IMG/VR virus record: IMGVR_UViG_3300025151_000045
Coordinates: 1-55,316 of that record
From: a virus
Lineage: Duplodnaviria > Caudoviricetes
Length of the DNA stretch: 55,316 nt
Reading direction: 5' to 3' (one strand)
The notes beneath the pieces are model-generated. The model was not told where the DNA came from, did not search any database, and saw only the letters and a list, made by a program, of their open reading frames with translations. The translations under genes and the position numbers were made by a program. The first letter of the stretch is position 1. Each line of letters opens with the position of its first letter. This document shows positions 1,420 through 52,143 of the stretch, in pieces.

Positions 1420-1604
1420 TACCAGATTATAGGGAACGCATTAAACTCAATCGTGTAAATCAAACAATGGATGATCTTCATGATCGAACCAATGACATTT
1501 ATGAGCATTGGGTGGAAGATGATTTTCCAGAAATGAAGGAAGCTATAAAAAAGCAAATTATAGAATTAAAAAAACTACTACATGGACTCCAAGAAGAAAC
1601 CTAG
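1416..1604 (+). CDS. hypothetical protein
   Basis: ATGA-coupled ORF in a tight + strand run. Confidence 0.65.
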   Translation: MIPDYRERIKLNRVNQTMDDLHDRTNDIYEHWVEDDFPEMKEAIKKQIIELKKLLHGLQEET

Positions 1605-1806: not shown

Positions 1807-2257
1807 GGCTAGACTTAAGATCGCACAACTAAAAGAAGACAGCTTTAGAAAACTTTTTAAAAACACACAACTTCCTACTAAGAAGCAAGACATGTTTGAA
1901 CATTGGGATGTTCAAGTAAACTTCAAGGTTGATGTAAAGGGTTTGAAGAAAGTTAAAATGAAAGACAAAAAGCCTGATGAAAACATCCACTGGATTGAAA
2001 TAAAAAACGTGTTAGGTAATAAAGGGTGGCTATATGGCGAGGCTGATTTTTTTGCCTTTGAAACTCATAAGTATTGGATAGTAGTCCCTAAGGTCCCTTT
2101 GCAGGATTGGGTCGCTAAGAACGTGTCTAAGGAGTTTTTCAGTCATCCAGAGATGTATAAACTCTACAGCAGAGCTGGGAGACAAGATATAATCACCTTA
2201 GTTTCCAGTCACGACCTATATTTTCTAAGCGAAGTGGTGTTAGAGAAGGAAGGTTAG
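1781..2257 (+). CDS. putative PD-(D/E)xK nuclease
   Basis: DMFEHWD...VDVKG...WIEIKNVLGNKGWLYGEAD pattern. Confidence 0.6.
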   Translation: MRGNNTGAKARLKIAQLKEDSFRKLFKNTQLPTKKQDMFEHWDVQVNFKVDVKGLKKVKMKDKKPDENIHWIEIKNVLGNKGWLYGEADFFAFETHKYWIVVPKVPLQDWVAKNVSKEFFSHPEMYKLYSRAGRQDIITLVSSHDLYFLSEVVLEKEG

Positions 2258-8200: not shown

Positions 8201-11200
8201 TCAGGATTCATATCTTGTATTTCAAAGGGTAAATCTTTTACTTGGTCTAACAACTTAGAACCAACTCCCTTGCCCTCTACAGACTTATCTACCACAACAT
8301 CAAAAGTATATTTACCTGTTGAATTATCATAAGAAGTGTATGCACCTCCTACAATTTTACCATCTTTATCTCTTGCTATAAATGCTATTTCTCTATCTGA
8401 AGTAATTCCTAAATCTCTTTCTTTAGCAATATTTCTAACTTTGTCTTCTGCTTCGTAATCTATCTCCCCATCTTCTGTTACAGCAGGTTCTAATGTAACC
8501 TCTTGATCTACTTCTTTTTTCGCTTGGTCAACTTGGACTTCTTCTTGATTTAATAAATTATAATATTCGTCTTTACTTAAATTCTTTATACTAATTCCCC
8601 CTCTATCAATTTCAGATACTTGATATCTAGCTGTACCATCATCATATAATTGAACAGTAAATTTATATTTTTTACCTCCTATTTCTATAATTTGCACTCT
8701 TTCTCTAACAGCTACTAAATCTGTTCCTCTCTGTCCTTTTTTTCCTTCAGCTTTTGCTTTTTCTACCGCTTCTTTTCCTATAATTTTTTCTATAACTTTA
8801 TCTGTTCCTTCTTCATATATTGTTAAAGTTGGTATATTATCTTTTGCTTCTTTAAATTCAGGAGTAATTCCATCTATTTCTAATTGTTTTTCTATTTTTA
8901 CTTGCGTCTGGTCAACTTGGATTTTTTCTTGACTCTCTTGGGTAGGCGTTTCTTGGGTGTCTCTTGTTCCCAACGTTTCGCCATCTGTGGATTGTTGCTG
9001 TACATCCACTTTCTCTGTGCTTGGCTTTTGAATGGCATCTATCTCTTGGTTTTTAGTTTTTAAAATGTCTTGAACCTCTTGGTTAGGGTTTCTTATAATA
9101 ATGTTGCTATTAATAAGATCCTTAGAACTCATCTTATTTAAGATCTTAACAAACTGTTTAGCGTTGTATTTTCTACCATTAACAGTATAGCTTTGTCCTA
9201 GCTGTGGAAGCTTAACCTGATTCTCTTTACTTCTTACTTTTCCTGAAGTTATAATCTCATTTATCTCTTTGTTGATTTCAGAGATCTGAGGTCCATAAAT
9301 TTCTTTGCTTTGCTGGTAAAAGTTTCTAGACTTTATCAATTCAGCTACCCTGCTTTTTAATTTTGCCTTTCTCCCTCTACCTCTTACTTTCTGAATTACT
9401 GATTCTACAGTAGTTTTTTGAGATACTGTTTCTTGATCTGTTGGAGCCACATCTTCTGTTACAGCCTCAGTAGTAGTTTCAGTAGTGCTTTCTAATACAG
9501 GTAGTTTTATTTTTATTTTAACTTTACCTGGACCTCCTTTAATGGTAGATGTTTCAATTCCTGGGTATATCTCTTGAAGTTCATTAACAATATTATCAGC
9601 CTCAGCTTTACTAACTACAACATCTTTGTAGTCTGTAGACTTTCCAGTTATACCTTCTTTTGTGGCTTGATTTAATGTTACCTCTTTAGTAATTACATTT
9701 CCATTTTCATCAACACTTTCTTTATACCCTTTCTCTTTAGATTTATTCCAAACCCTTAATCCATCTTTAGAAACACTTTTAGTCTCCATCCATTGATGAC
9801 CTTCAGGTAATTGAGTTTGAGCATTGGCTATCATTTTTCCAAACCCTTTGCCATCTACTACCTGCATTTTAGATGTAAACTTATTAGTTGGCTTACCATT
9901 TTCATAAACTCTGTAATAACCTACAAAATTTTGATTAGTGCCTGTGCTACTAATAATTATATCTACTTGACCATTTTCATTTGAATAAACGCCTGTAGAA
10001 ACTTCACCATCAGTAGTCACATCAGAAATCTTAGGAGCACCAGGAATTCCTGGAGCTTCTTGAGTTTCATCAAATAATTTTTTATCTCTATTCTTTACTC
10101 TTTGAGCAGCCTCTTCAGTAGTAGTTTCTTGATCTGCTCTAAGTTTTTTGTTAGTAAACGCCCCCTTAAATCTTGGAGCCACATCTTCTACTGCTTCTTC
10201 AGTAGCAACTTCAGACGCAACCTCTTCTTCTGCTATTGCTAAGTCAGGGTTGCCATTTTTAATATATTCCTGAGCTGTCTTCTTAGCTGCCAGGTTGTCT
10301 GTAATCTGTTGATATGTCACATCATCAATCTGCCCAGTCTCCCTCATGTTGTTGGTCCAAGCTAAAATTTTCTTAGGGCTTGCAGTTTCTTTCATGATGT
10401 TTTTTACATCTGTCAGCGACTCAGCAAATTGAATTTTTTGAGCACGACTATTAACGTCATACATGTTTTTAGCTATATTGGCATACTGAACAGGAGCACC
10501 TAATGATCCTAACATCTCATCTCCTACTTCATTCCAAGCAAACTTATCCTGATCTCCAATAAAAGCCATTCTTGATGCCTGAGCAGCTACCTCTCCTAAT
10601 CCTTCACCTAAAGTTACTGTTGAAAACTCAGCACCTACCATCGCACTTTTTGCTACAGCAGATTGAGTAAACGCCCTTCTCCCAGCACCAAAGATTTTAC
10701 CACCCATTTTTACAGTCAACATGTTAACCAAAGCAATAGGCACACCTCTAGCTAACCCTCTGTTTCTAGCGTCTTTCCAAACCTCATCATCTTCCATTGC
10801 AGTCTTCCAGTCTTGTGGTAATGTAGGGTTGTAACCCTTCTCAGCAGCCACATCTAATATAGCATTGGTGTATTCTACTAGTCCACTAGCTATAGCAAAA
10901 GTTTCACCTGCACCTTCAATAGCACCTAGTCCTGCACCAATAGCAAGCCCTGGAATACCACCTTCACCACCAACAGCAGCAGTGGCAGCAGCCCCACCAA
11001 TAGCACCCTGCCTACCTCTTTGAACTATTCTAGCACCCATTATAGGGACAGCTATTTTTAATCCATAAGGTAGCATTTGGCTCATAGAGTTAGCAAATAA
11101 TGCACCTGCTACCTCAAAAGGATCTCTAAAAACAGTTGCCCAATACTCACTTCCAGAATCAAAAAAACCTTTTCTAGTGTATCTATTGTGACGTTTTAAA

Positions 11201-13314
11201 GCTAAACTTTCTGTGCTGTTGTTTGCTGATTGCAAGTAAGCTGCAACCTCTTTAGACATCTCTTCTCTAGTTTGTGAGTCATGACCTGTAAGACCCATGC
11301 CATACCATAACAAGACATCTCCTGCGCTACCCCTTTTATAACCTTTGTTAAACTCACCTTTAAACCCCTCATAATTTCTTTTTGTATTCTCAGTTATGCT
11401 TTTGTCAAACTTCATGTCAAAAAAGGTCCTAGCATTTAAGTATGAATTAGCTGCTTCTTTTTGAGATATGTTTATGCTGTTTATATTATTGCTTAGTTGT
11501 CGATATTGTTCATAATCGTTTAGCGTTTTAAGATCCCCTTGACCTAAAATAATCTCACCTTTCTCATTCACCACCACTTCAATATCTTGAAACTGTTTGC
11601 CAAATATTCTTTCTGACTCTGCCTGTGAAACGTCATATGCTTTTTTTGAAGCTTTATCTACTTCTGCTGCTAAAGCCATACTGTTCTGTCTTTCTTTTTC
11701 AGCAAAGAAATCAAACTCATCCATTGTGTCACTAATGTAGGTATCAAACACTGACCCTGCACCATAAACCTCAGCTAGCTTCTCATATTGTTGTTCCCCA
11801 TCTTCAACAATCTTAGCCAGCGTAGCTGGGGTTTTAGGCACTACTATTCCATTTTTTAAAGTCATAAAAAGATCTGGAAATCTTCTAGTGTCTTCTTCGC
11901 TATACTTCTGATATTGAGAATTAGGGTCTTCCAATAAAGCATCAGCTAAAGTTAATTTGTCTTGTAGGTGTTTATAGTTTCTACCCCCTGCAGATACTGC
12001 ATAATAATTTAATCCTTTATCTTCAAAAAACTTAACAGCTTTTTTATTTGCCACATCCATTAAGTCATCTTTGGGTGAGATGTTAAGGTCAGCATTGTTC
12101 TTTAAGAATTCTGTCAATAAGTCAAAATCTTCTATCTGATCTAAGTCAACGTCAATGACATTTCCATTTATGTCAACAACACCAAAACCATTACCTATTG
12201 CATTAGATATAGTAGGCATAGCACTAAAGCCATATCTACCAAACTGTTTATTAAAAGCCTTTATTCTATCTTCTGCAGAGATATTGTCTTTTGCTATTTT
12301 ACTCAACGAGTCATTAGTCAGCAGCTCTGCAAACTCTTGATCATTAGCAATCTGTTCATTTCGTTGATTAGATAATCTTTCTTTTTCTAACCATTCCTTT
12401 TTTTGATTCTCTATCTCTACTGCTTTTCTCTCAGTATATTTTTTTAGTTCCTGAATCTTATCATCACCAGGAGCAAACTGTCTGCCTGTCTCATCAAAAA
12501 TAGTTTTGTAGGTAGACTTACTTTCATCAACCTCTTTATTGTGCTCAGTTAATGCTGCTTCTTTTTTCTTGTCAACAGCCTCTATATCTTTCTGATCAAT
12601 AACACCATCATTGTTTACGTCATACTGCTTATTGTTTTGGTAAGCTTTAGACATCATGCTAACACTGCCATCTGTTGTACTTTCGTTAGCTATAAAGTTT
12701 TGTATGTTTTGCTTTTCATCTGGAGCTTCAGGTTGACTTGTTAATCCTTTTCCACGTTCTCGTGCAGCTGAAAGCTTTTCAATTCTTGATTTATATTCTT
12801 GATATTGTGGAGAGGCATCTATATAAGCCTGGCTAAATTTAACAGCTTCTGGAGTGTCGTTTAAAGGATTACCTGCGTAAATGTCAAGCTTACGCCCACG
12901 TTCATCTCTAATCTCTCTATACCCTTCTTTCTGTTGGTTTAAGAAACTAAAATCTTGTTTAGCTTCTCCAGATTCCAAAGAGCCATCTGTGCTTTCTTCC
13001 TTGGTAGTAGATTCCATACCTTCCTCTTGAGAAGAAAATTCTGGTTCGTCTTTTTTTTTTAATGTACCATCTTGTACCAAAGAATCAAATTCGTCTCCAT
13101 AATAAGATTTTAGTTCAGACTCTCCAACCTCCATACCATTTGGAGTAGTATAAAGTATTTCACCATTAGATGGCTGAATATTTTCAGTAGAAGACACCTC
13201 AGCTTTTAATGTGCCATCCTCAACTAAAGAATCAAATTCATCTCCATAATAAGATTTTAATTCTGATTCTCCAACCTGCTGTCCATTAGGGGTAGTGTAA
13301 ACTGTTTCTTCCAT
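2254..13314 (-). CDS. giant polyvalent virion/ejection protein (3686 aa) with GNAT-like domains and a zincin metallopeptidase
   Basis: Last gene of the structural block; HEFGH at ~aa 2288 (nt 6439-6453) with downstream EEALVE; GNAT motif A VVVDKSVEGKGVGSKLL; Gly/Ala hydrophobic segment ~aa 750-950; EF-hand-like DVNNDGVIDQKD. Confidence 0.8.
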   Translation of the reverse strand: MEETVYTTPNGQQVGESELKSYYGDEFDSLVEDGTLKAEVSSTENIQPSNGEILYTTPNGMEVGESELKSYYGDEFDSLVQDGTLKKKDEPEFSSQEEGMESTTKEESTDGSLESGEAKQDFSFLNQQKEGYREIRDERGRKLDIYAGNPLNDTPEAVKFSQAYIDASPQYQEYKSRIEKLSAARERGKGLTSQPEAPDEKQNIQNFIANESTTDGSVSMMSKAYQNNKQYDVNNDGVIDQKDIEAVDKKKEAALTEHNKEVDESKSTYKTIFDETGRQFAPGDDKIQELKKYTERKAVEIENQKKEWLEKERLSNQRNEQIANDQEFAELLTNDSLSKIAKDNISAEDRIKAFNKQFGRYGFSAMPTISNAIGNGFGVVDINGNVIDVDLDQIEDFDLLTEFLKNNADLNISPKDDLMDVANKKAVKFFEDKGLNYYAVSAGGRNYKHLQDKLTLADALLEDPNSQYQKYSEEDTRRFPDLFMTLKNGIVVPKTPATLAKIVEDGEQQYEKLAEVYGAGSVFDTYISDTMDEFDFFAEKERQNSMALAAEVDKASKKAYDVSQAESERIFGKQFQDIEVVVNEKGEIILGQGDLKTLNDYEQYRQLSNNINSINISQKEAANSYLNARTFFDMKFDKSITENTKRNYEGFKGEFNKGYKRGSAGDVLLWYGMGLTGHDSQTREEMSKEVAAYLQSANNSTESLALKRHNRYTRKGFFDSGSEYWATVFRDPFEVAGALFANSMSQMLPYGLKIAVPIMGARIVQRGRQGAIGGAAATAAVGGEGGIPGLAIGAGLGAIEGAGETFAIASGLVEYTNAILDVAAEKGYNPTLPQDWKTAMEDDEVWKDARNRGLARGVPIALVNMLTVKMGGKIFGAGRRAFTQSAVAKSAMVGAEFSTVTLGEGLGEVAAQASRMAFIGDQDKFAWNEVGDEMLGSLGAPVQYANIAKNMYDVNSRAQKIQFAESLTDVKNIMKETASPKKILAWTNNMRETGQIDDVTYQQITDNLAAKKTAQEYIKNGNPDLAIAEEEVASEVATEEAVEDVAPRFKGAFTNKKLRADQETTTEEAAQRVKNRDKKLFDETQEAPGIPGAPKISDVTTDGEVSTGVYSNENGQVDIIISSTGTNQNFVGYYRVYENGKPTNKFTSKMQVVDGKGFGKMIANAQTQLPEGHQWMETKSVSKDGLRVWNKSKEKGYKESVDENGNVITKEVTLNQATKEGITGKSTDYKDVVVSKAEADNIVNELQEIYPGIETSTIKGGPGKVKIKIKLPVLESTTETTTEAVTEDVAPTDQETVSQKTTVESVIQKVRGRGRKAKLKSRVAELIKSRNFYQQSKEIYGPQISEINKEINEIITSGKVRSKENQVKLPQLGQSYTVNGRKYNAKQFVKILNKMSSKDLINSNIIIRNPNQEVQDILKTKNQEIDAIQKPSTEKVDVQQQSTDGETLGTRDTQETPTQESQEKIQVDQTQVKIEKQLEIDGITPEFKEAKDNIPTLTIYEEGTDKVIEKIIGKEAVEKAKAEGKKGQRGTDLVAVRERVQIIEIGGKKYKFTVQLYDDGTARYQVSEIDRGGISIKNLSKDEYYNLLNQEEVQVDQAKKEVDQEVTLEPAVTEDGEIDYEAEDKVRNIAKERDLGITSDREIAFIARDKDGKIVGGAYTSYDNSTGKYTFDVVVDKSVEGKGVGSKLLDQVKDLPFEIQDMNPEATVEVDVVSPVMEKMLKSKGFEVIEKIGPSRFLMSPKTETPTTEVSEVVEETKVDQEVEKVVKDEAEVLAQALGLNISSKKGDARFEIAEEVELEDEVSIKKIEDAMNKMLDAQIQFTEPTSQPDTKVNAVKVSKVNKKEIAKALKKLGLNEDEVIVTLEEFDNTPTLMAMSDVLATGKSLKDSQGNPIDVRGGLMYNLLGPNKNLAWAGVDFEGAQKMVDNAVKVYQNNKEYFNNWWADNPKYKGMVPLTVMRMADSAIYSNEATFRWINPTIKKYSLEARTEAFKTFVKDLDKPITGKDLKKAKADFKKFLENNPEIKTIDQLLDAVVKDSQERAKKKTKEDATAEAGHLPLDSKKYLFHKIFSPAKTQKVGGRLIAKTLNDIDSQPDQKSMFSEKLLLDDIGEPAMMQARKGDVMGFMGIDVINPKVVRADHQNYGWGPKGKFLGVLETPTNGINVFPEFFAKASRVFKPEIEKATGKPKSLPSKEKVRDQVGGSFFIDNAFVGARIKASKMSPIEIITAKLRYAFPQVNVINSQQEFNKKINEPGVLTSKVKGKVILGLTKDGQIYLNPDKATLATPIHEFGHIWIDFLRSKASGKKGTALLNKGLELIKDTSYYEKAKKKYGEFDADGNLTNEDLVLEEALVEGIATKGENIAKASVRSNFLSWLNGMYKYIQEKFTTSKETKMEDIANLSIDDFQNIALADLFSGKTAMEKEAAAFDPAFEAGKTSRARFEVMGGLSAIEIIREGRKQGFTDASIIEVVKSMYPKLTIEEIKSTIDFEGGQIGLFQDYNVPASFGNVIGGMREGIAMLSDIRNTLKKTKKKRDKEGKPLTRIQMREMAGKLLRNHEVYKLLTGNKQLQKQLEVDLDKLMDIDEGKNLSERMDLLKTQIRSMKVNESNLQSMKKRITSLLRQQVAIKEVTKSEYNKALRILRDAKLDNFDASMLKIEKLAEDIEVRQKKALIAETIKNFTNLAKVGRSKSGRTVSKGRIDASGIRFFAEAAKQLKAFAKNDEKTINRLQAELFDVVDGLVTGVKAEVQAAVDKMESETKDSKATREEMALVNKLGIYSLLSQINSKSLEDIKSILQNFKNVEDASRQQLGNQIYQRARRNREIKEGTDNLMSESFNDIITSDRTTFRPVSNEEKTTFGTKVLDKWDGNSESTVEVDGKTFRVVIEETVSEKTKKISTKNVIQIQEKEFLTEDEIKDNWASLRERILSAKGKDKAAGKIVNEMLKSFKKIKDKRFYIKFFNQLAKNPASSTNTLLRLMETKNNKFLSENVIDKLADMSEDYIRGKFNQKDYMDALANSIFGFDKGIQGVMDNASKNVDLKMEKGVKNFNIGELMNLYALMKNEETALMILEGGRGSFKFRSDLQQQLDEILDSKTKEFVDRTVEYLSDQYYEGVNEVYEATNYVSLPKTKNYFPRQVKTDQKTQQQLVDAVKDGDFHKAFNAQYASALKNRSANLGQVQTRGRDFFSVLDNHFSEMEKFKAYAEGLKDVSAVFKSDGISKAMLVTGSNSRILKQLTQTINPEALMELMSNDLLDKNLSRFTVGVLAFKAVQILKQATSFITAYADYNYNPNFKPKGAGGVIAKEIQDALGFAYDTARMAINYRKNFQEAKKVSATFRDRVEDGDLYSLATGIQRNRSVLNKGKFARKFEKAAGWTTQVGDQLGVMGYFINYKRNIENGMSRDKALRAFNKYNETQQTRRAQDLSAIQLMKSPFLRLFTAFASTSILQLNKFMQESYNMVINKDFSKRTVRSMALNVSLANALFFTAGNFLRLTGDEEDEEKFVRDLTAYATGLKMFQSSLIILGDIFEAVNLMYLNDMDPYSARNRASKQYNPIVDTFFEFYAGLQDVSDKTKTDKEVESAYRRMATKMLYLSSVNIDPLLAMSDLFKDDVELDETIPAILGFPKGALKDQIDPAKPLRWIDFEAYQEKKAQEEYHENLPEVQEIEKLQNEAKEDVNEAITEMLKNN
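8026..8513. repeat. 17-bp direct repeat AACCTCTTGATCTACTT flanking the GNAT module
   Basis: Copies at 8026-8042 and 8497-8513; offset 471 nt (in frame). Confidence 0.85.
8525..8932. repeat. 24-bp direct repeat (22/24 identical) flanking an AT-rich module
   Basis: TGGTCAACTTGGA(C/T)TT(C/T)TTCTTGA at 8525-8548 and 8909-8932; offset 384 nt (in frame). Confidence 0.8.
8898..9038 (-). CDS. nested +1-frame gene: 46-aa basic protein MPFKSQAQRKWMYSNNPQMAKRWEQETPKKRLPKRVKKKSKLTRRK
   Basis: ATG at 9038 with A-rich upstream sequence, TAA at 8900-8898; resembles the small phage protein family I recall as MPFKS.AQR.WM.AN.P.MAKRW. Confidence 0.7.
   Translation of the reverse strand: MPFKSQAQRKWMYSNNPQMAKRWEQETPKKRLPKRVKKKSKLTRRK
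9428..10189. repeat. nested direct repeats flanking a GNAT-like module
   Basis: TTGGAGCCACATCTTCT 9441/10173; GTTTCTTGATCTG 9428/10124; TCAGTAGTAGTTTC 9467/10115; all offsets are multiples of 3. Confidence 0.8.
13057..13299 (-). repeat. N-terminal tandem protein repeat (2 x 32 aa) of the giant protein
   Basis: YTTPNG..VGESELKSYYGDEFDSLV.DGTLK at aa 6-37 and 55-86. Confidence 0.9.
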
Positions 13315-13316
13315 GC

Positions 13317-15206
13317 TTATAATTTAATTACATAGTTACCTTTTAATTCATCTCCTTGAGCCATCTGTTTGTATAACGCCTCGAAGTTTCCTCCTTGAAT
13401 TTTAAATTCACCATCTGTTTTTGTTAAAGGGAATTTATATTTATTTCCTTTATAACCAAATATAATACCCTCTGAAAACTTACGACCATACTTATCTTCT
13501 GTTTCATCTCCAGAATATTCATAACCAGTAAAGTTAAGGTCTGCATCTAACCCTCCTGACACAAGGGAGCTATAGGCGTCTATTACTGTGTTTATGTTAT
13601 CTTCCTCTATAGGATCTTTAAACACCTTGCTAGGACTAATCTCGTCATTACCAAACTTCATGAGTGGAAGATCTGAATATTTTTTAGAAGAAAGCCTAGT
13701 TGTTGTAGCAGTATAATCTTTATTTGATGTTCCATAAGAATCTACTTGGTTGTAAGAGTTAACTGCATCTTTTGGTGGTGCAAAGCCATACATAAAAGAG
13801 AAATAAGCATTCATAAACTGCCTATTGTTCATGCCAGTCATATCAATCTGATCTTGTACTGGTTCAGTTGTTTTTTTCCCAGTTTGGGGGTCAATTGTTG
13901 TTATTGTTTTTTCCATGTAAACAATTCCATCTTTTCCTCTCCTAAGATCATCAAGTTTCACCTCTACTTTATCACCTCCCTCACCAGTAACTACAACAAA
14001 GTTTTTTAAAGCACTAACTGATTCATTGTATCCACCTTCGTTACTACTAAAAAGTTTGTTAATTAAATCTAGGTTTGATTTTTGTTCCTTTAACTTATCC
14101 CCTCTTTTATACTGCCACTCTTGCATTTGTGCTGGAGCTCTTCTTTCTGTTATGGTTTCTTTTAATCCAAGTCTAGAGCCTACGCCATTTTCAAAAGTAG
14201 TCTTGGCTTTTTCTGATGCTTTTATAAAGTTTTCATGATCCCTAATAGGATTAAGTCTACCATCCTGTCCAGCCTCAACTAATATTAAATTTTTATTAGC
14301 ATCAGCCTCATCTTTATCTTCTGTGTAATTATATTGAGTGCCAGCTGGCATACCATCTGGTCCTGGAACCCCTTGATCAGTAATAAGGCTTAATATCGAA
14401 TCGTCATTATTACTTACTGTCTCCCACTCAGCATTAATGTATGCCATAGCCTCATCGTTTTGCCTAACATCTGACATAGTCTTTATAAACCTACCTTTAA
14501 CATCAGCTTTTAAGAATACTCCTAGCCCCTCAGCTGTAGTGTCATACACACTGTTCATATCTACATTGTCATACTTTTGAACTACAGCAGACAATGACCC
14601 TGGAAGTGTTCTATAATCCCCCACCTTTTTAGATGGGTTGCCATTTTTATCAAACTTTGCAAATAGCAAATCGCCATTTGCTGTAAACTGAAAGCCATGA
14701 TCTACCATTTGAGCTAAAGCCCCTAAACCTTCCATGTTGTAAGCATCTAATGTAGACCCTTGACTTAAAACTTTCGAGCCTTCCAATGTCCCTGCTTTTT
14801 GTCTAGCCATCGCTTCTTCATACTGAGTGTTAAACTCTGTAATAAAAGCTTTCATTTGAGTAGCAGAATTGTTAATCTTATTGGTTTTATTAAGCCATTG
14901 ATCTCTAGTCATCTTACCCCTTCTGTACAAATTGTTTGCTTCTTGCAACATCAATGAGCCTTCCTCCATGGCTTTAGTAACTCTAGGAACCAACATATCC
15001 CCACTAGCAGCTGTTAGCTCTGCATTTTCCTGGACTGTTTCATTAAAAGCATCTTGAGTTTTGTTGATGTCTGTCAACATGGAGTCCCTAGTAGCTAGTC
15101 CTGACTCAATAGCATCTGAAAAACTTTTTGAAAACGCACTGTAATCTACAGCTGTTTCTTTTATTACTTTTGACTCAAATTGTGTGGGTTGTAATGATTC
15201 TGCCAT
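13317..15206 (-). CDS. putative internal virion/ejection protein
   Basis: 629 aa with helical N-terminal half, between the pilot-like gene and the giant gene as in podovirus ejection trios. Confidence 0.55.
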   Translation of the reverse strand: MAESLQPTQFESKVIKETAVDYSAFSKSFSDAIESGLATRDSMLTDINKTQDAFNETVQENAELTAASGDMLVPRVTKAMEEGSLMLQEANNLYRRGKMTRDQWLNKTNKINNSATQMKAFITEFNTQYEEAMARQKAGTLEGSKVLSQGSTLDAYNMEGLGALAQMVDHGFQFTANGDLLFAKFDKNGNPSKKVGDYRTLPGSLSAVVQKYDNVDMNSVYDTTAEGLGVFLKADVKGRFIKTMSDVRQNDEAMAYINAEWETVSNNDDSILSLITDQGVPGPDGMPAGTQYNYTEDKDEADANKNLILVEAGQDGRLNPIRDHENFIKASEKAKTTFENGVGSRLGLKETITERRAPAQMQEWQYKRGDKLKEQKSNLDLINKLFSSNEGGYNESVSALKNFVVVTGEGGDKVEVKLDDLRRGKDGIVYMEKTITTIDPQTGKKTTEPVQDQIDMTGMNNRQFMNAYFSFMYGFAPPKDAVNSYNQVDSYGTSNKDYTATTTRLSSKKYSDLPLMKFGNDEISPSKVFKDPIEEDNINTVIDAYSSLVSGGLDADLNFTGYEYSGDETEDKYGRKFSEGIIFGYKGNKYKFPLTKTDGEFKIQGGNFEALYKQMAQGDELKGNYVIKL

Positions 15207-34056: not shown

Positions 34057-34619
34057 ACTACCATAGTTATATTGTGTGTATACATTCTATACAACTTCTC
34101 TCCATCTACATTAAACTCATATTCACTTTCAGGTTGAAAGCCAACGACATCACCTTCATTTACTCCAAGTGCAGCAAGTGATTCATTGCCATATTTAACT
34201 ATACCCATTAAGGGTTCTTCATTAGTATTCTTTAGTAAATAATGATTATCCTCAACATCTATTGGCTTTACAAAGCAATACTGCAAACAACTATTCCATT
34301 TTCCATCTTTTTTATAAGCATAAAACTGCGTGGTGTCTACAAAAAAAGTGTTGTCTTTTAAAAAACTTTTTCCACTTTTTTCTCTACCCTTCATGTCATT
34401 ATAATATTTAAAAACATTGTGATGAACTAAAATTTTATCTCCTGGAGATATAGGACCTTTGTACCCAAGTGGTGTTTCTACCACAATAGCTTCTCTATTA
34501 GAGAATTTAAAATCTTCTTTAGAGCTGCTAGTTATAAACTCCAAACCACCCCAATCTACAGTGCTGTTATATCTTCTGTCCTTATCAGGAGTTATTATAA
34601 AATAAAAAGGTGACTTCAT
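34053..34619 (-). CDS. tandem GroES-like co-chaperonin
   Basis: Two GroES-like units: AIVVETP...ISPGDKILVHH and FVKPI...GIVKYG...VNEGDVVGF...EFNVDGEKLYRM. Confidence 0.6.
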   Translation of the reverse strand: MKSPFYFIITPDKDRRYNSTVDWGGLEFITSSSKEDFKFSNREAIVVETPLGYKGPISPGDKILVHHNVFKYYNDMKGREKSGKSFLKDNTFFVDTTQFYAYKKDGKWNSCLQYCFVKPIDVEDNHYLLKNTNEEPLMGIVKYGNESLAALGVNEGDVVGFQPESEYEFNVDGEKLYRMYTHNITMVV

Positions 34620-45363: not shown

Positions 45364-45484
45364 GGTATATTGTTTTAGTTAAAAATTCTTCAAAGGTATA
45401 TCCCAGCTGTTTTATCCCTAGGTATATGTATTCACCCCACAGCTTGTTCTTTTGACCTAGGCTTATAAATTTACTGGCTTTCAT
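45347..45484 (-). CDS. 45-aa ORF bridging groEL and groES (not in ORF track)
   Basis: MKASKFISLGQKNKLWGEYIYLGIKQLGYTFEEFLTKTIYLEDFK overlaps both neighbours. Confidence 0.45.
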   Translation of the reverse strand: MKASKFISLGQKNKLWGEYIYLGIKQLGYTFEEFLTKTIYLEDFK

Positions 45485-47120
45485 AGGTTCTAGCTAAAGT
45501 TATTATTGCGTTAGTAGACATAATGGTGGTGGCTACAGATACTGCATTAAGCAACGCACTCTTAGTTACCTTGGCTGGATCTATTATCCCTTCTTTTATT
45601 AAATTCACCACCTGTTTATTCTTGGCATTAACTCCACGCACATTCCAATGACCCCCTTCTAGAAACTCACCAAAATGGGCAATGTCCTCTCCATCGCAAC
45701 CAGCATTTCTCATGATTGCCTCAAATGGTTTCTTTAAAGCTCTGCTTAATATTAGCCCAGCTGCTAAGTTAGCAGTGGTTCCAGATAGTTTCTTACCCCA
45801 AGACACACTCTTTTTACTAAATAGCATTTCAAAGCTATATAGGCAAACTCCCCCTCCAGGGAGTATTCCATCTTCCAGTGCAGCCTTTACTGCACAAACT
45901 GCGTCTTCTATTCTATCAAACCTTTCTTTCTGCTCAGTGTCAGTAAGCCCACCAGCGTAGATAACGCCAATTGCTCCTACCAGCGAAGCTATCCTATTAT
46001 TAATATGATCTCTATCAACCTTCTTAGTTGCTAGTTTGTACTGCTCCTTAAGTTGTGCAACCCTTTCATCAACACCCTCATTCTCCACTTCACCCTTTAC
46101 AATTACTGTAGTGTCCCTACTTACTGTTACCTTAGCAGCATGACCTAAGTCATTCTCAGTGATCAAGCTTAGATCATCACCAGTCTTTTCAGAAAAATAC
46201 TTCGCCCCCAAAGATAACGCTATGTCTTCCATCATCTCATGCGACTTATAACCAAAGCTTGGTGGTGGAATAATACACACCCTTACGCCATTCTTCATTA
46301 CGTTTGCTGCCAGCGTGTTGATCATGTTGGTTGAGCAGTTAGCAATAATCAATAGCTTATCTTTATTTTTTACCACTGGCTTTAATACATTCTCTATTTG
46401 AAATATATTATCAATGTCAGAATCACAAACCAATACCTTACAGTTCTCATATATACACTCATCCCTCTCATGGTTGTTTACAAACAGATGAGAGCTATAC
46501 CCTCTATCCAATTTAAACCCATCAGTAACGTCAGCGTAAGTAAGCTCAGTCTCTGACTTCTCTACAGTAACCATTCCATCAGGACCCACCTTCTGGTAAG
46601 CGTCAGCTATAATCTTTCCTATCTCCTTATCGTTGTTAGCAGAGATGGTAGCTACATCAATTAATTTTTTTTGATCCAACTTAATTGACTTCTTATTTAA
46701 TATTCCTACAAAGTCATTAGTCAACTTAACAATCTCATTTAAAAGCTCAGTCTTATTTAACGCAACTACACTATCCTCTAAAGCGTAGATGATCTCTTTA
46801 ACTAACGCTTCAGCAAGAACAATAGATGTAGTGGTTCCATCACCTGCGTCCAGTGCTGTCTTGGCAGCTGCCTGCTTCATTACCTTTACTGCTAAATTTT
46901 CTATTGGATCCAACATGTCGATTGACTTAGCTACAGTTACACCATCCTTAGTTACTGTTATTCCATGCGAATGGGACTGCGACTCAATTAACACAGTCTG
47001 TCCCTGGGGACCTAGTGTTGACTTGACAGCCTTAGAAAGTTTTGTGATTCCTGAAATTAATTTATCTCTAGCCTCCTTATCAAAGGTTAGATTTTTGGGA
47101 GAATATCCTAGTTCGTTCAT
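45471..47120 (-). CDS. groEL: phage-encoded chaperonin GroEL
   Basis: TLGPQG, VTKDGVTVAK, AGDGTTT, GILPGGG, GIIDPAKV motifs. Confidence 0.95.
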   Translation of the reverse strand: MNELGYSPKNLTFDKEARDKLISGITKLSKAVKSTLGPQGQTVLIESQSHSHGITVTKDGVTVAKSIDMLDPIENLAVKVMKQAAAKTALDAGDGTTTSIVLAEALVKEIIYALEDSVVALNKTELLNEIVKLTNDFVGILNKKSIKLDQKKLIDVATISANNDKEIGKIIADAYQKVGPDGMVTVEKSETELTYADVTDGFKLDRGYSSHLFVNNHERDECIYENCKVLVCDSDIDNIFQIENVLKPVVKNKDKLLIIANCSTNMINTLAANVMKNGVRVCIIPPPSFGYKSHEMMEDIALSLGAKYFSEKTGDDLSLITENDLGHAAKVTVSRDTTVIVKGEVENEGVDERVAQLKEQYKLATKKVDRDHINNRIASLVGAIGVIYAGGLTDTEQKERFDRIEDAVCAVKAALEDGILPGGGVCLYSFEMLFSKKSVSWGKKLSGTTANLAAGLILSRALKKPFEAIMRNAGCDGEDIAHFGEFLEGGHWNVRGVNAKNKQVVNLIKEGIIDPAKVTKSALLNAVSVATTIMSTNAIITLARTYESQ

Positions 47121-47144
47121 ACTTGATTAAATTTAAATTATAAA

Positions 47145-47152
47145 CAAATATA
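47145..47152 (-). promoter_or_regulatory. -7 promoter element TATATTTG upstream of groEL
   Basis: Consensus 25 nt upstream of the ATG. Confidence 0.55.
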
Positions 47153-47179
47153 AATAAAAAACTATACTATACAAGTATC

Positions 47180-47320
47180 TTATTTTATTTTCACCAGCTC
47201 CAAGAGTGGCATCATAAATACTTTAACAAACCCCTTAGGCTTGTAAGATACTAAAGCATAACTTGTACTAAGGCTCTTTATATAAACCCTTTTACCATTA
47301 TGTGTTAACCTGCGTTTCAT
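47180..47320 (-). CDS. 46-aa hypothetical protein (not in ORF track)
   Basis: MKRRLTHNGKRVYIKSLSTSYALVSYKPKGFVKVFMMPLLELVKIK. Confidence 0.45.
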   Translation of the reverse strand: MKRRLTHNGKRVYIKSLSTSYALVSYKPKGFVKVFMMPLLELVKIK

Positions 47321-47502
47321 TGTGACGACTTTTTAGGTATATACTATTATATATAATACTATGTAAAGGTAAATGTTTTTTTTATTTATTATTACTTTTT
47401 TTTCATCACAATTGTCACAAAAGAAATAAATAACTGATAATCAACTAGTTACACTGTGACGAGACTGTGACGACCTGTGACGATAATACTGATCTGTGAC
47501 GA
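47320..47502. repeat. iteron-like (C/T)TGTGACGA repeats, AT-rich tract and IHF consensus: putative origin
   Basis: Copies at 47320, 47454, 47465, 47475, 47494; inverted degenerate copies 47404-47420; AATCAACTAGTTA at 47439-47451 matches WATCAANNNNTTR. Confidence 0.6.
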
Positions 47503-47518
47503 TCTTATATATAGGCAT

Positions 47519-47550
47519 AAAAAAAGGGTGGTAATTAAACCACCCTCTTT
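47519..47550 (-). terminator. intrinsic terminator, possibly bidirectional
   Basis: AGGGTGGT/ACCACCCT stem flanked by an A-run and CTTT. Confidence 0.75.
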
Positions 47551-47595
47551 CGAACAAACACACCTAATTGAAGGACATTGGTGAGAAGAAAACTC

Positions 47596-47772
47596 TTATA
47601 ACTTCTTGAATAAATTGATATTCGCATTTGCTAATTCATTAGCCTCTGCAATCATTCGAACCTTTTCAGCTCTTTTTAATTCTTTACGCATTCGAGCCAT
47701 TTTTGAAATACCCATTTCTGGCTCAGGTCTATCGTTGATCAACCTTCCTCGTTTTATATTTAATCCATCCAT
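47596..47772 (-). CDS. 58-aa hypothetical protein, leaderless (not in ORF track)
   Basis: MDGLNIKRGRLINDRPEPEMGISKMARMRKELKRAEKVRMIAEANELANANINLFKKL; TATCTTTG at 47777-47784, 4 nt upstream; terminator downstream. Confidence 0.7.
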   Translation of the reverse strand: MDGLNIKRGRLINDRPEPEMGISKMARMRKELKRAEKVRMIAEANELANANINLFKKL

Positions 47773-48329
47773 GAAACAAAGATAAGAAATTTTTTTTAGA
47801 TATCTGGAGATTTTGGGTTCTATAGCGATCTACGTCAAGCACCCCTCAGTGTGAAATGAAAATAAAAAAGGCGACCCTTCAGTGTTGTATCTGAGGTGGT
47901 GGAACTTTTTAGCTTTTTATCTACCTCTGTTGCTCGTCCAGGTCACGCCCTTTTCGTTTATCCTAGGCTACCCCCTTGACCACGTCACTCGACCACCATC
48001 CCAATGGCTCATTACACCTAGGAGTCACCCCTTCCCCCCTACCCCCAAGACAGAAGGAGAGAGTCTGAACACCTTCAGAGAGGAAGACCCTTCCCTCAGC
48101 CCCTGCCCCAACCCCAATCTTCCTAAACAAAACCACCAGAGAGAATGCGAGTCTAACTACCTGACAGTCAGTGGACTGAGAGTTGCACCACCTAAATGTG
48201 TCTAAAAACAGAAAATTCGCTACCTCTGTTAACAGATAAGAGATTTTGTTTAAGGTTGTGTCATATGGAGTAGACAGGTAGAATCTAAAATCAAAATGGT
48301 TAAACAAAACGTAAATAATTCGTCAATAA

Positions 48330-48383
48330 CTTGTCAGTCTCAATCCCTTGCCATATCATTGCACCAACAACGAGTTCTTTGAC
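48330..48383 (+). promoter_or_regulatory. early promoter (-33 CTTG, -7 TATCATTG) followed by boxA-like GTTCTTTGAC
   Basis: 20-nt spacer between elements; boxA-like sequence at 48374-48383. Confidence 0.6.
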
Positions 48384-48394
48384 ATGCTGACCAC

Positions 48395-48801
48395 ACCGAG
48401 ACTATCAGTCGCACCTTCGGTACTCCCTCTAGAGTCCTTCTAGAGAGCACCTTTCGAGTCCTTCGAGAGAGCATATGGAGTGGCAAGGTTAAATGCTTCA
48501 GATATAGAATACTCCACCTGATATGGAGTAGGGAATAAGCCTCTGATAAGAGTCAGAGCAGTGAGTCAGTAAGGTATCTGTTGAGTATGAGGAGCAGTAA
48601 AATGTACACCTCGTCCAGTAAAACCTATGGTAAGATGTTAATCAGAGCATCTAGAGTAAGGCTGGAAATGAAAGACAGAGAATCATCAAGACAACGATGA
48701 GGTTAAATGCAGGGCAACCACTGAAACACAGAAGTCACACAATGGTGGACTTAAACTATACTCAGGGTAGGGAGTTCGATTCTCCCCCTTATCGCTAACC
48801 A
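48395..48801 (+). ncRNA. large structured non-coding RNA/leader with 3' tRNA-like domain
   Basis: No ORF of 60 aa or more; at least 10 helices by eye, a covarying twin hairpin, an 8-bp acceptor-like stem and a GGGAG-TTCGATT-CTCCC T-arm. Confidence 0.65.
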
Positions 48802-48814
48802 TAAAACAATAACA

Positions 48815-49015
48815 ATGAAAAAACACATCATCGAAATCATCAAGAGAAACGTAGAGTTATCTATGAACAGAGTAAAAATCATCGCTTCAAGGCTTCAGGA
48901 AGACATTCAAGAAATGGGTCTTGCTGGTGAAGACATTGAATCGTACATCGAGTGGGCAATGAGTAACGTTGCCTTCTTTGATATAGAGAACAGAGTAGTA
49001 TTAATTAATCAATAA
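48815..49015 (+). CDS. early hypothetical protein
   Basis: A-rich start context; first ORF after the RNA element. Confidence 0.7.
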   Translation: MKKHIIEIIKRNVELSMNRVKIIASRLQEDIQEMGLAGEDIESYIEWAMSNVAFFDIENRVVLINQ

Positions 49016-49032
49016 AATAGGAGGAACATAAG

Positions 49033-49242
49033 ATGGAACAATCACGCAAAATAAAAATGATCGAAACAATAACTAACCTATCTGACGAGAGACTAAAAGA
49101 GGTATATGAGAGAGTTCTTGATGAGCTACTTTCATTCCCTTATGAAGAGGACTTGAAGGTAAGTCAGAAGTTTATGGAGTTCGAGATAGTAAGAAGGTGG
49201 ACGAGGTCACTTGAGGTGAATATAGTAGGGAAGAGACAGTAA
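49033..49242 (+). CDS. early hypothetical protein
   Basis: AGGAGGA upstream; stop codon lies in hammerhead stem I. Confidence 0.7.
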   Translation: MEQSRKIKMIETITNLSDERLKEVYERVLDELLSFPYEEDLKVSQKFMEFEIVRRWTRSLEVNIVGKRQ

Positions 49243-49321
49243 TACTGATGAGTCCTAGAAGGACGAAACCTAGAGGTGAGGTGGCAATGGGGCTACCTCT
49301 TAAACTCGATGGTCTATTACT
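49238..49321 (+). ncRNA. type I hammerhead ribozyme
   Basis: Stem I AGTAATA/TATTACT, CTGATGA, stem II GTCC-TAGAA-GGAC, GAAA, stem III CC...GG, cleavage triplet GTC ending at 49314. Confidence 0.9.
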
Positions 49322-49341
49322 AATCAATTAAAATTAAAATT

Positions 49342-49464
49342 GTGAGACTATACACAAATGGAAACACTTGGAAATACTCATTAAGAATGGGTAGACTTTG
49401 GTTCTATTGGAAGCCAATTAAGAAAGGTAGAAAAAGATTTATTATTCAATTAACTAAAAATTAA
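49342..49464 (+). CDS. 40-aa basic/aromatic peptide with GTG start (not in ORF track)
   Basis: MRLYTNGNTWKYSLRMGRLWFYWKPIKKGRKRFIIQLTKN; same TAAAATT start context as the next gene. Confidence 0.45.
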   Translation: MRLYTNGNTWKYSLRMGRLWFYWKPIKKGRKRFIIQLTKN

Positions 49465-49468
49465 AATT

Positions 49469-49660
49469 ATGAATCAGGAAATAACACTTCAGTTGACAGA
49501 AGGTCAACCAATATTTTACTCACGTTCTGGAAATTTACCGAAGGTACAGAAGGAACTAATACTCATCGATGGACTATCTGAAATAGATGTCCTTCCATTA
49601 TCGAAGATGGGAAAGAGGTTTAAGAAGAACATTCAAGAATTGTCTAATCTAATATTTTAA
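49469..49660 (+). CDS. early hypothetical protein
   Basis: ORF with A-rich start context. Confidence 0.6.
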   Translation: MNQEITLQLTEGQPIFYSRSGNLPKVQKELILIDGLSEIDVLPLSKMGKRFKKNIQELSNLIF

Positions 49661-49663
49661 ATT

Positions 49664-49876
49664 ATGTCAGAGGAAATACAAGAGTTCCTAAAGGAATTAA
49701 ACACAGAGCTAAAGATTACAGTAAAGCAACTGAAAGATTTTTACATCAACAGTGGTCGTCTAGATGAATACGATGATAGACACCAATGGACAGATGAAGA
49801 TATTCTTGACTATGCCCTCAATGATGAAGGGTGGTTGATAGAGTATGATAAATTTATTAATCAACATAAAAAATAG
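49664..49876 (+). CDS. early acidic hypothetical protein
   Basis: ORF in tight run. Confidence 0.65.
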   Translation: MSEEIQEFLKELNTELKITVKQLKDFYINSGRLDEYDDRHQWTDEDILDYALNDEGWLIEYDKFINQHKK

Positions 49877-49880
49877 AGCA

Positions 49881-50852
49881 ATGGCACAGAAGAAAAAAAC
49901 AGATATCTATGAGAAGATTACTAACATAGTTATCAAGGGACTACAAGAGAAGGGCTTGAATTGGTTCAAGTCTTGGACTAACGAATATGGTCAAGAGATG
50001 TTACCAGTGAATCACATCTCAGGTAAAGCGTATAGAGGAATCAATGTCTTTATCTGCTACGCTTCAGCAATGGAGTATGGATATCCAACGAATGAGTGGA
50101 TAGGGTACAAACAAGCCAAGGATATGGGATACAAAGTCCCTAAGGGAGCTACTGAGATATTCTATTGGTATACGATGTACTTCGATGCAACCAAGAAGAA
50201 ATGGATATACTTTGGTGAGTACAAGAAGTTAACCAAAGGGATGAGTGCAGAAGACAAAGCCAATAGGTTTACTCAGAGAATGTTCCCTAAGTCTCAGTTC
50301 GTATGGAACATAGCTCAGTTAACTGAAACGTTAGATGGCAAGTCAGCTACTGTAGAACCTAAGTGGACTCCACAGAAACCAATGATCATTGAAGACAAGA
50401 ACGCAGAGATTAAAAAAGCGAAGGCTGTCTACAAGAATATGGAGCTCAAGCCTTCCTTGAGACATGGAGGTAGCAGAGCATACTACAGACCATCAGCACA
50501 CCACATACAGATGCCTAAGCTAGAGACGTTCAAGACATCAGAGGACTACTACAAGGTACTGTTTCACGAGATGGTACACTCTACAGGTAACGAGCAGATA
50601 CTCAACAGAAAGGGAGTGGCTAAGTTCAATGGCTTTGGCACTGAGACTTACTCAAGAGAGGAACTTGTAGCTGAGGTAGGGTCAATGATGCTGTGCTCTA
50701 AGATAAATCTGATACCATCAGATGAGTACACTAACAGTAAAGCCTACATCAATGGATGGGTGAAGTACTTGAAGAATCACAAGAAAGAAGTGATGACTGC
50801 TTGTGCTCAGTCACAGAAGGCTGTCGAATATATCTTAAATGAAACCAAATAA
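49881..50852 (+). CDS. ardC: ArdC-like antirestriction/ssDNA-binding protein with zincin domain
   Basis: PVNHISGKAYRGIN, IQMP..E.F....YY..LFHEMVHSTG, YSREELVAE; ATG 49881 preferred. Confidence 0.85.
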   Translation: MAQKKKTDIYEKITNIVIKGLQEKGLNWFKSWTNEYGQEMLPVNHISGKAYRGINVFICYASAMEYGYPTNEWIGYKQAKDMGYKVPKGATEIFYWYTMYFDATKKKWIYFGEYKKLTKGMSAEDKANRFTQRMFPKSQFVWNIAQLTETLDGKSATVEPKWTPQKPMIIEDKNAEIKKAKAVYKNMELKPSLRHGGSRAYYRPSAHHIQMPKLETFKTSEDYYKVLFHEMVHSTGNEQILNRKGVAKFNGFGTETYSREELVAEVGSMMLCSKINLIPSDEYTNSKAYINGWVKYLKNHKKEVMTACAQSQKAVEYILNETK

Positions 50853-50884
50853 TTTAATCAGCCCCTCAGTTGAGGGGCACAATA
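50850..50884 (+). repeat. intergenic hairpin motif, copy 1
   Basis: TAATTTAATCA-GCCCCTCA GT TGAGGGGC-ACAATA. Confidence 0.85.
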
Positions 50885-50893
50885 TTTATAACT

Positions 50894-51664
50894 ATGAGTG
50901 AATCTAAAAAATATGTAGTAATAGAAACTTGGAATGGAGAAGGATACTCTGATTCAGGTTGTAGTATAGTAACATCAAATGATATCGTTGCTCACTGCAA
51001 AGCCTTAGCTGAAGAAGAGGTTGCCCCTGTTGAAATGAAGAAAGTTCACAACCTTGACAATGACAAGGTAAAATTTCAATACTCAGTTGGTGAAAATGCA
51101 GGTGCAGTATGCTACGAGGAGCTAGAAGATGATATGTTAGCGATTGCAATTGAGCCCCTAACAAACAGCTACACTGTCCTTAGAGACAAGACAGATGTAG
51201 ACATAATGGCTAACTTTATCAAGAAACATTCTGAAGAGTACCAAGAGACTCAGCAGGTGTATGGTATATGTCACGAGAACTTTGATGGTGGGTTAATCTT
51301 ATGTGCTCTTATTGAAGATGAGCCTGAGGTTAAGCAAACCAAAAAGTACAAGGCAGAGTACTACCTACCAAGACACCTCAATGGGTTTGTACAATACAGA
51401 GGTTATCAGATGTTATGTGTGTTAGCCAATTCGTTATCCTCATTATCTGGCAGAGCAAGGTTTTACCTATCTGAAGAGGAGAGGGTAGATATGAAATGGT
51501 CTACCTATAGAGGTGAGGGTAGCTTTATGTCAGCTGTCGTTGAGGGGGACTTCTTGTCTGCTTATCACAAAGGGAGCACAGACCTACAAAAACTCTTGCT
51601 AGATGCTGTTAACAGTGGAGAGATTGAGCTACCTACTAACAGAGAGATACATAAGAACTATTAA
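50894..51664 (+). CDS. early hypothetical protein
   Basis: ATG 50894 chosen from motif spacing; YVVIETW N-terminus similar to 52659. Confidence 0.7.
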   Translation: MSESKKYVVIETWNGEGYSDSGCSIVTSNDIVAHCKALAEEEVAPVEMKKVHNLDNDKVKFQYSVGENAGAVCYEELEDDMLAIAIEPLTNSYTVLRDKTDVDIMANFIKKHSEEYQETQQVYGICHENFDGGLILCALIEDEPEVKQTKKYKAEYYLPRHLNGFVQYRGYQMLCVLANSLSSLSGRARFYLSEEERVDMKWSTYRGEGSFMSAVVEGDFLSAYHKGSTDLQKLLLDAVNSGEIELPTNREIHKNY

Positions 51665-51698
51665 TTTAATCAGTCCCCTTGTATGAGGGGACACAATA
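51662..51698 (+). repeat. intergenic hairpin motif, copy 2
   Basis: TAATTTAATCA-GTCCCCTT GTAT GAGGGGAC-ACAATA. Confidence 0.85.
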
Positions 51699-51707
51699 CA
51701 TAAAACA

Positions 51708-52100: not shown

Positions 52101-52134
52101 TTTAATCAGCCCCCTTTTACTAGGGGGCACAATA
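52098..52134 (+). repeat. intergenic hairpin motif, copy 3
   Basis: TAATTTAATCA-GCCCCCT TTTACT AGGGGGC-ACAATA. Confidence 0.85.
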
Positions 52135-52143
52135 CTTATAACA

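Follow-up and report, generated by a model that had tools for sequence, protein, structure and literature searches.

The window (the whole stretch of DNA analyzed here) comprises 55,316 bases from IMG/VR, is estimated to be 91% complete and originates from an uncultured marine podovirus-like phage. Its structural genes occupy the minus strand up to position 47120, and a block of mostly small genes extends along the plus strand from 48815 onwards. The portal protein matches 87 records, 86 of which belong to cultured phages that all infect Flavobacteriia (Flavobacterium, Cellulophaga, Tenacibaculum or Maribacter), with less than 60% identity to cultured phages (43–47% among the matches listed). 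At the DNA level, a blastn search with positions 48800–50900 recovered no close relative among GenBank phages. The portal resemblance suggests a host among the Flavobacteriia, which fits the A-rich leader without a Shine-Dalgarno run that is described below.

Several further features of the window lie outside the plus-strand block. The minus strand encodes a GroEL-like chaperonin (45471–47120; PF00118; phrog_5725, E 4.5e-128), whose closest GenBank record is 55% identical, and an ORF of 3686 amino acids (2254–13314), which has no PHROG match except for a weak acetyltransferase-like stretch at residues 1642–1732. The two gene blocks are separated by a 1.7-kb ORF-poor stretch (47121–48814) containing a G+C-richer patch, in which no tRNA or tmRNA and no Rfam match were found, and whose fold z-scores of −0.8 and +1.0 indicate no excess folding energy. 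Within this divergent region, CTGTGACGA occurs four times in 49 nt (47454–47502, plus strand), and these copies look like operator or iteron elements. Further downstream, two adjacent and similar palindromic hairpins, both with a GUCCU loop, are located at about 48427–48470, and a T-arm-like sequence, GGGAGUUCGAUUCUCCC, at 48770–48786 is followed by an ...ACCA at 48798–48801, 14 nt before the first plus-strand ORF.

A predicted hammerhead ribozyme (49238–49321) stands at the head of the plus-strand block and is followed by small genes and then by a gene for an ArdC-like anti-restriction protein. The ORF directly upstream encodes 69 amino acids (49033–49242, plus strand) and ends with a TAA at 49240–49242. 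Downstream, a 40-amino-acid ORF with a GTG start (49342–49464) and a 63-amino-acid ORF (49469–49660) are found on the same strand. The upstream ORF showed no Pfam domain above cutoff and no PHROG match, and the small ORFs flanking the hammerhead likewise gave nothing above threshold in Pfam or PHROG. The ArdC-like protein (335 amino acids; 49845–50852, plus strand), whose gene begins approximately 520 nt 3′ of the predicted cut, combines an ArdC N-terminal domain (PF08401, E 2e-22) with a zincin peptidase domain (PF18818, E 2e-33) and matches the anti-restriction family phrog_7245 (E 2e-64). It is plausible that the neighbors of the hammerhead are early genes.

A different conserved hairpin module is shared by three consecutive intercistronic gaps that follow the ArdC-like gene in the same operon (50853–50893, 51665–51707 and 52101–52143, plus strand). 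Each copy begins right after a TAA with UUUAAUCAG and continues with a G+C hairpin of 7–8 bp, the first pair of which is changed from C-G to U-A in one copy; the hairpin is followed by ACAAUA..., and the next ATG lies about 15 nt further on. We considered a classic terminator and rejected it, as the U-run is absent. The exact pattern of the UUUAAUCAG module was found in only one other viral contig. The module may be a promoter or a processing site, or may protect a 3′ end, and its position suggests that the true start of ORF 50870 is the ATG at 50894.

Read from the sequence, positions 49238–49321 of the plus strand form a complete type I hammerhead. Its elements follow each other in the order stem I 5′ strand, core, stem II hairpin, GAAA, stem III hairpin, UC and stem I 3′ strand, i.e. 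stem I is open and stems II and III are closed by loops, as is characteristic of type I. The 5′ strand of stem I (AGUAAUA, 49238–49244) pairs over 7 bp with its 3′ strand (UAUUACU, 49315–49321), as seen in the sequence, the fold and the model alignment. The catalytic core CUGAUGA (C3–A9, 49245–49251) is followed by a stem II hairpin of 5 bp with a 3-nt loop (GUCCU-AGA-AGGAC, 49252–49264), which is closed on the core side by the G10.1–C11.1 pair (G49252–C49264), and by the core GAAA (G12, A13, A14 and A15.1, 49265–49268). All invariant letters of the hammerhead core are thus present: C3 U4 G5 A6 N7 G8 A9 at 49245–49251 and G12 A13 A14 at 49265–49267. The A15.1–U16.1 pair is formed by A49268 and U49313, and position H17 is a C (C49314) and not a G. 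The hammerhead consensus places the scissile bond between C49314 (C17) and U49315. Stem III (49268–49313) has a base of three pairs (A49268–U49313, C49269–G49312 and C49270–G49311), followed by an internal loop, a 3-bp helix (49273–49275/49305–49307), a second internal loop and an 8-bp distal helix, in which GAGGUGGC (49278–49285) pairs with GCUACCUC (49292–49299) around a loop at 49286–49291. An earlier, sequence-only reading had proposed a complete type I core with a cut after C49314, a stem III extended by a further helix, an upstream TAA inside stem I and a 27-nt leader before the GTG at 49342. All of these positions proved correct: the TAA agrees with the end of the listed ORF, the predicted A/U-rich leader of the 3′ product (49315–49341) measures exactly 27 nt, and the extension corresponds to the distal helix, which is complementary, though different in sequence, in the closest copies described below.

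RNA folding is consistent with this architecture. The unconstrained minimum-energy fold of 49238–49321 is the hammerhead three-way junction (−26.7 kcal/mol, z −2.80), with stems of 7, 5 and 3+3+8 bp, and a slightly longer segment (49232–49330) folds into exactly the same junction (−28.2 kcal/mol, z −2.35). When 241 nt are folded, the minimum-energy structure at equilibrium retains stem II and distal stem III and loses stem I, but this structure represents a fraction of 0.0013 of the ensemble, was computed without tertiary contacts and is uninformative. We also considered a conformational switch, as the conserved CCUAGA of stem III can pair with the GUCUA at the cut site in the L172 copies described below, and dropped it, as only 4 bp are possible in the window.

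A descriptor of our own (CUGANGA, stem II, GAAA, stem III, UH and stem I), scanned over both strands, found a single site in the whole window. Among 200 first-order Markov resamplings of the window, a loose parse occurred in five (mean 0.035 per window), and stems of at least 6/4/3 bp in none. In Rfam, no match was obtained at gathering score anywhere in the window. In E-value mode, the best match was a partial one to Hammerhead_HH9 (RF02275) with 16.2 bits, against a gathering score of 52, and RAGATH-1-hammerhead (RF03152) gave 15.3 bits, against a gathering score of 56.3; no other ribozyme class was detected in this mode between 48800 and 55316. With Rfam silent at gathering score, the decisive evidence must come from relatives of the element.

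Relatives were collected in two ways. The ArdC-like protein, used as a query against viral contigs, led to four loci, which we refer to as L002 to L005. The ArdC-like protein of L002 is 54% identical to that of the window and is preceded by two hammerheads, and L003 contains one. The hammerheads of both loci have the same stem I as the window but different stems II and III, and the two of L002 share the base of its stem III. No hammerhead was found at the ArdC-like locus of L004, and the one of L005 has another stem I and parses better as type III. Independently of the protein, the exact 5′ half of the element (stem I strand, core and GAAAC) was found in at least 83 stretches of viral contigs. 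The 3′ half (UH and the complementary stem I strand) is present in 81 of these 83 loci; of the other two, L149 ends at the end of its contig and L200 has no such half. These loci yielded 103 distinct parses, 88 of which have the GUAAUA stem I. Similarly, a pattern of core and common stem II occurs in at least 123 stretches of viral contigs, corresponding to 112 distinct type I parses.

A covariance model, R1, was built from 19 compact members of this family, with the window excluded. It matches the window with 49.4 bits (E 6.3e-8) over its full length (1–58). The next matches in the window reach 17.1 and 16.7 bits (34193–34232 and 14376–14417, both minus strand) and lack the core. There is thus no second hammerhead copy in the 55-kb window by either the descriptor or R1, and with a single copy a general “punctuation” role is not evident there. 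The scan with hammerhead models that had been suggested as a check of the sequence-only reading was therefore negative for Rfam at gathering score and positive for the family model. Ten loci of the GUAAUA family also gave no gathering match in Rfam, and a compact relative reached 24.3 bits with HH9 and 21.5 bits with RAGATH-1-hammerhead, again below gathering. As compact relatives fail in Rfam too, the shortfall reflects the construction of the models and not the RNA. The Rfam thresholds miss the GUAAUA-stem I family.

Over the family loci, R1 gave 150 matches from 84 sources. Some contigs are rich in copies: G001 has 15 matches, a few of which belong to the same long-stemmed copy, G003 has 10 and G002 has 6. 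In these three contigs, hammerheads form dense arrays between single small genes (in G001, a 22.5-kb contig that includes loci L144–L148, at 8348–14671), and most copies have the same stem I, followed by a Shine-Dalgarno run. R1 found no match in MW202828.1, the closest GenBank record by GroEL and portal, or in Maribacter phage Panino. A weak match of 32.9 bits was observed in Flavobacterium phage elemoF_6-3D (MT497071.1, 16041–16106, minus strand; L220), in a 150-nt gap between two minus-strand genes over which a small plus-strand CDS is annotated; by our reading its stem II has two mismatches, and we treat it as a lead only.

Sequence variation within the family follows the predicted pairing. 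In an alignment of 101 distinct members, 99.1% of the paired cells can pair, compared with 74.9% after shuffling and 25–45% when the partners are slid, and both partners vary in 13 of 15 pairs. The covariation score of 0.584 (0.110 in shuffled alignments) was reached in 0 of 500 shuffles; the alignment was fitted to the model and thus favors pairing, but the 3′ half was absent from the pattern by which the loci were collected. Within stem II, three of the four modeled pairs show changes on both sides. In the core, where the search pattern fixed the remaining letters, N7 varies freely (U in 63 members, C in 26, A in 6 and G in 6), and H17, which the pattern did not impose, is C in 86 members, A in 15 and never G. 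A free N7 together with an H17 that is C or A but never G is a signature of real hammerheads. Furthermore, the type of loop II and the nucleotide that directly follows stem I on its 3′ side covary: of the 101 members, 73 combine a five-nucleotide U..U loop with an A, and about 19, like the window, combine a U..A closure or an AGAA loop with a U. This pattern in the sequences hints at a possible contact of stem I with loop II, the usual tertiary interaction on which fast cleavage at cellular Mg2+ depends.

Stem III differs widely in length among family members; it can be as short as a 5-bp hairpin or contain an insert of about 100 nt. The closest counterparts of the window in this respect are two copies at L172, on the same contig as L002, which have the same stem III base and the same internal-loop letters. 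Their 8-bp distal helices are wholly unlike that of the window in sequence and yet self-complementary, which shows that the stem III extension is a real helix. In the minimum-energy folds of these L172 copies (1988–2067 and 1450–1531, minus strand), a UAGAC of stem III pairs with the GUCUA at the cut site and displaces stems I and III; this predicted alternative fold is possibly an inactive conformer. With homologues at many loci, 49.4 bits on a model that excludes the window and covariation in 13 of 15 pairs, the identification of 49238–49321 as a hammerhead, with which the sequence-only reading had begun, is strongly supported on comparative grounds.

The position of the element relative to its neighboring genes is also shared by the family. 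Of the 112 parses with the common stem II, 99 are preceded by an open frame of 50 codons or more, nine have too little upstream DNA and four have no such frame. In these sets, which were collected by exact 5′ patterns, include related contigs, rely on crude ORF calls and do not represent independent events, 73 of the 99 upstream frames stop at positions −11 to +12 relative to C3, with peaks in stem I (−3; 20 cases), at the core UGA (+1; 15) and in loop II (+11; 8). For the GUAAUA family, a stop within 12 nt of C3 was found in 68 of 98 cases when the longest ORF was used (34 of the 98 with the TAA in stem I) and in 61 of 98 when the most downstream ORF was used, compared with 481 of 4900 random positions at the same loci (9.8%). 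Approximately 30% of the upstream ORFs in the family end further away. The leaders, counted from the cut to the following start codon, have a median length of 26.5 nt; 73 of 98 are no longer than 40 nt, and 33 of the 98 contain a Shine-Dalgarno-like run. With its stop at −5 and its leader of 27 nt, the window shows the modal layout of the family. A stop codon in or against stem I, combined with a leader of 20–27 nt, is the usual layout of the GUAAUA family.

A stop codon within stem I is also present in both L002 hammerheads, and a corresponding arrangement occurs in cultured phages. In the Pelagibacter phages Eistla EXVC025P and HTVC168P, three of three hammerheads begin on the stop codon (TAA) of the upstream CDS annotated in GenBank. 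These elements (MT375521.1, 8783–8849 and 10037–10108; OR420735.1, 484–555) have the stem I GUAACA/UGUUAC, each fold as a hammerhead and lie ahead of the RNA polymerase gene within the early region. In the GenBank records of these T7-like phages, the hammerheads are unannotated. A literature search on pelagiphage ribozymes returned no relevant paper, and none of the matches listed in a search for DNA-phage hammerheads at stop codons dealt with this subject, as judged by title or abstract; the literature on RAGATH-1 hammerheads likewise offered nothing of use.

Contigs from four other sequencing runs (three studies) retain positions 49203–49341, and the changes listed for them spare the core as well as stems I and II. 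One strain variant, from run X5, carries A49303G, which lies in an internal loop, and C49305A, which breaks the G49275–C49305 pair in the middle helix of stem III. As the strains are close, this conservation across samples is weak evidence of selection. Similarity to the contigs of other samples stops exactly at 49341, which supports 49342 as the true start of the downstream gene. A contig of run X3 matches up to this position and continues with unrelated letters that start with ATG, and one of run X5 has 195 other letters in place of 49342–49456; the alternative letters from 49342 onwards identify the slot after the leader, occupied in the window by the 40-amino-acid ORF, as a variable cassette. 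At L002, a homologue of the following ORF, 49469–49660 (57% identity over 60 amino acids, E 3e-19 by blastp), adjoins the second hammerhead of that contig directly downstream, without a 40-amino-acid ORF in between. An identical 50-nt hammerhead was found in seven contexts, in which the upstream 200 nt are 71–96% alike and the downstream 200 nt about 57–67% in most pairs.

We consider it probable, at roughly 75%, that 49238–49321 is a type I self-cleaving hammerhead between two small phage genes, which splits the rightward operon transcript by cutting itself. Self-processing of the polycistron is, we infer, the most reasonable reading, and the hammerhead most likely cuts the operon transcript upstream of the ArdC-like gene. 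Upon transcription of the rightward operon, the RNA would fold into the three-way junction once the 3′ strand of stem I emerges and would then cut itself between C49314 and U49315. Owing to the type I topology, nearly the whole ribozyme would stay on the upstream message, whose 3′ end, 72 nt beyond the stop codon of that message, would be compactly folded and bear a 2′,3′-cyclic phosphate. The downstream message would start with a 5′-OH and the A/U-rich 27-nt leader, predicted to be unstructured, would carry the 40- and 63-amino-acid genes and would continue toward the ArdC-like gene. The net effect in the infected cell would be to uncouple the stability and translation of the adjacent cistrons.

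Other readings give the stop codon or the gene boundary a larger part. While a ribosome terminates at the stem I TAA, its mRNA channel would enclose the 5′ half of stem I together with some of the core, and cleavage would then depend on how much the upstream gene is translated. The stops inside stem I of the window and of both L002 hammerheads, the enrichment of stops near C3 in the GUAAUA family over random positions (68 of 98 against 9.8%, including the 34 TAAs in stem I) and the annotated TAAs at all three pelagiphage hammerheads are as expected for such gating. However, tight packing alone predicts the same layout: where stem I contains no TAA, the ORFs continue to whichever stop comes next within the ribozyme, at the core UGA (15 of 99) or in loop II (8 of 99), so that packing explains the arrangement equally well. 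In addition, about 30% of the ORFs end further away and, since cleavage is irreversible, transient occupancy by a ribosome would merely delay it. We therefore regard gating as unlikely. A broader version, in which termination and ribozyme folding compete for the same nucleotides, upstream translation sets the rate of cutting, and ribozyme and leader also provide a fixed joint for the exchange of early-gene cassettes between strains, appears improbable to a similar degree. In a related reading, ribozyme and leader would serve mainly as a fixed linker for the recombinational swap of downstream small genes, with cleavage being secondary. The divergence of X3 after 49341, the replaced letters in X5, the greater likeness of upstream than of most downstream flanks around the identical 50-nt hammerhead and the direct junction of the L002 homologue with its hammerhead all agree with such a role. 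On the other hand, the invariant stretches are short (approximately 14 and 9 nt), and the strong covariation in stems II and III indicates selection on the RNA fold and not on DNA identity. Gene boundaries in phages are common mosaic joints, with or without a ribozyme. We judge a primary linker function to be distinctly unlikely; a role as module boundary is compatible with the self-cleavage explanation and does not replace it.

That the element is a chance look-alike or a decayed, inactive relic is very improbable. The scores below the Rfam gathering thresholds, the two internal loops in stem III and the loss of stem I in the 241-nt fold could be taken in its favor, but every core position is intact, the window scores 49.4 bits on a model from which it was excluded, compensatory changes separate it from its closest copies, it is conserved across samples, and comparable stems occurred in 0 of 200 shuffled windows. 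Finally, cuts at two ribozymes, followed by ligation via identical stem I sequences, could give rise to circular or spliced RNA. Stem I is indeed identical in most family copies (88 of 103 parses), some contigs carry many of them (15, 10 and 6 in G001, G003 and G002), and the possibility was raised by Perreault et al (2011; PMC3088659). The window holds a single copy, however, so that no unit is bounded on both sides, and the same paper reports that no such products were detected; for the phage studied here, this outcome is extremely unlikely.

Self-cleavage of the operon transcript, as preferred here, places 49238–49321 among elements of a known kind, of which it is a further member: intergenic phage hammerheads have been in print since 2011. 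According to Perreault et al (2011; PMC3088659), tandem hammerheads flank prophage genes, including ardA in A. tumefaciens, are active in vitro and in E. coli and were proposed to process mRNA. A 2019 review (PMC6765202) repeats the processing role of prophage hammerheads as unproven, and a 2026 paper (PMC13725137) describes type I hammerheads as usually DNA-encoded in bacteria, phages or metazoans. As in the sets of Perreault et al, the element of the window is DNA-encoded, is flanked by phage genes of the same orientation, has an anti-restriction gene nearby (ardA in those sets, an ArdC-like gene in the window) and has the cutting of polycistronic RNA as its proposed role. Unlike the window, the sets tested there come from bacterial prophages, and the term “stop codon” does not occur in the text of that paper. 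The window differs from them in its single copy, its long stem III with two internal loops and its origin in a marine phage with a portal like those of Flavobacteriia phages.

Taken by itself, the element is thus ordinary; what gives it wider significance is the large family of type I phage hammerheads that the Rfam thresholds do not reveal. In this family, the GUAAUA stem I by itself accounts for at least 83 stretches and the common stem II for at least 123. The layout is regular: the upstream stop codon falls within or next to stem I, and the cut is followed by a short leader. With members in cultured Pelagibacter phages, cleavage and any link to translation can be directly tested there.

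The window shares with the Rfam type I models (RF02275 and RF03152, clan CL00010) the core, the type I order of helices and the short stem I, but scores far below gathering and does not match the upstream hairpin of RAGATH-1. With the GUAAUA/UAUUAC family of IMG/VR phage contigs it has in common the sequence of stem I, the TAA within it, the conserved A 5′ of stem I and the length of the leader, and it belongs to a variant, B, with a 7-bp stem I, a 5-bp stem II and a 3-nt loop. Most family members have a stem III hairpin of 5–10 bp, whereas that of the window measures 46 nt with two internal loops, a form common only to the two L172 copies. The pelagiphage copies differ by their GUAACA/UGUUAC stem I.

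Outside the ribozymes, RNase III sites in the early transcript of phage T7 uncouple the stability and translation of neighboring cistrons. These processing sites, reportedly described by Dunn and Studier in 1973, may be viewed as functionally analogous, in that cuts between cistrons give each upstream message a structured 3′ end. In T7, a host protein enzyme is needed and the end chemistry is another, and there is no family relationship. Another analogy is offered by synthetic ribozyme insulators such as RiboJ, which are said to go back to Lou et al in 2012. Although RiboJ is engineered and derives from another hammerhead type and source, and the analogy is functional only, cleavage at 49314/49315 would likewise strip the upstream context, so that the next start codon is preceded by a short leader of defined length.
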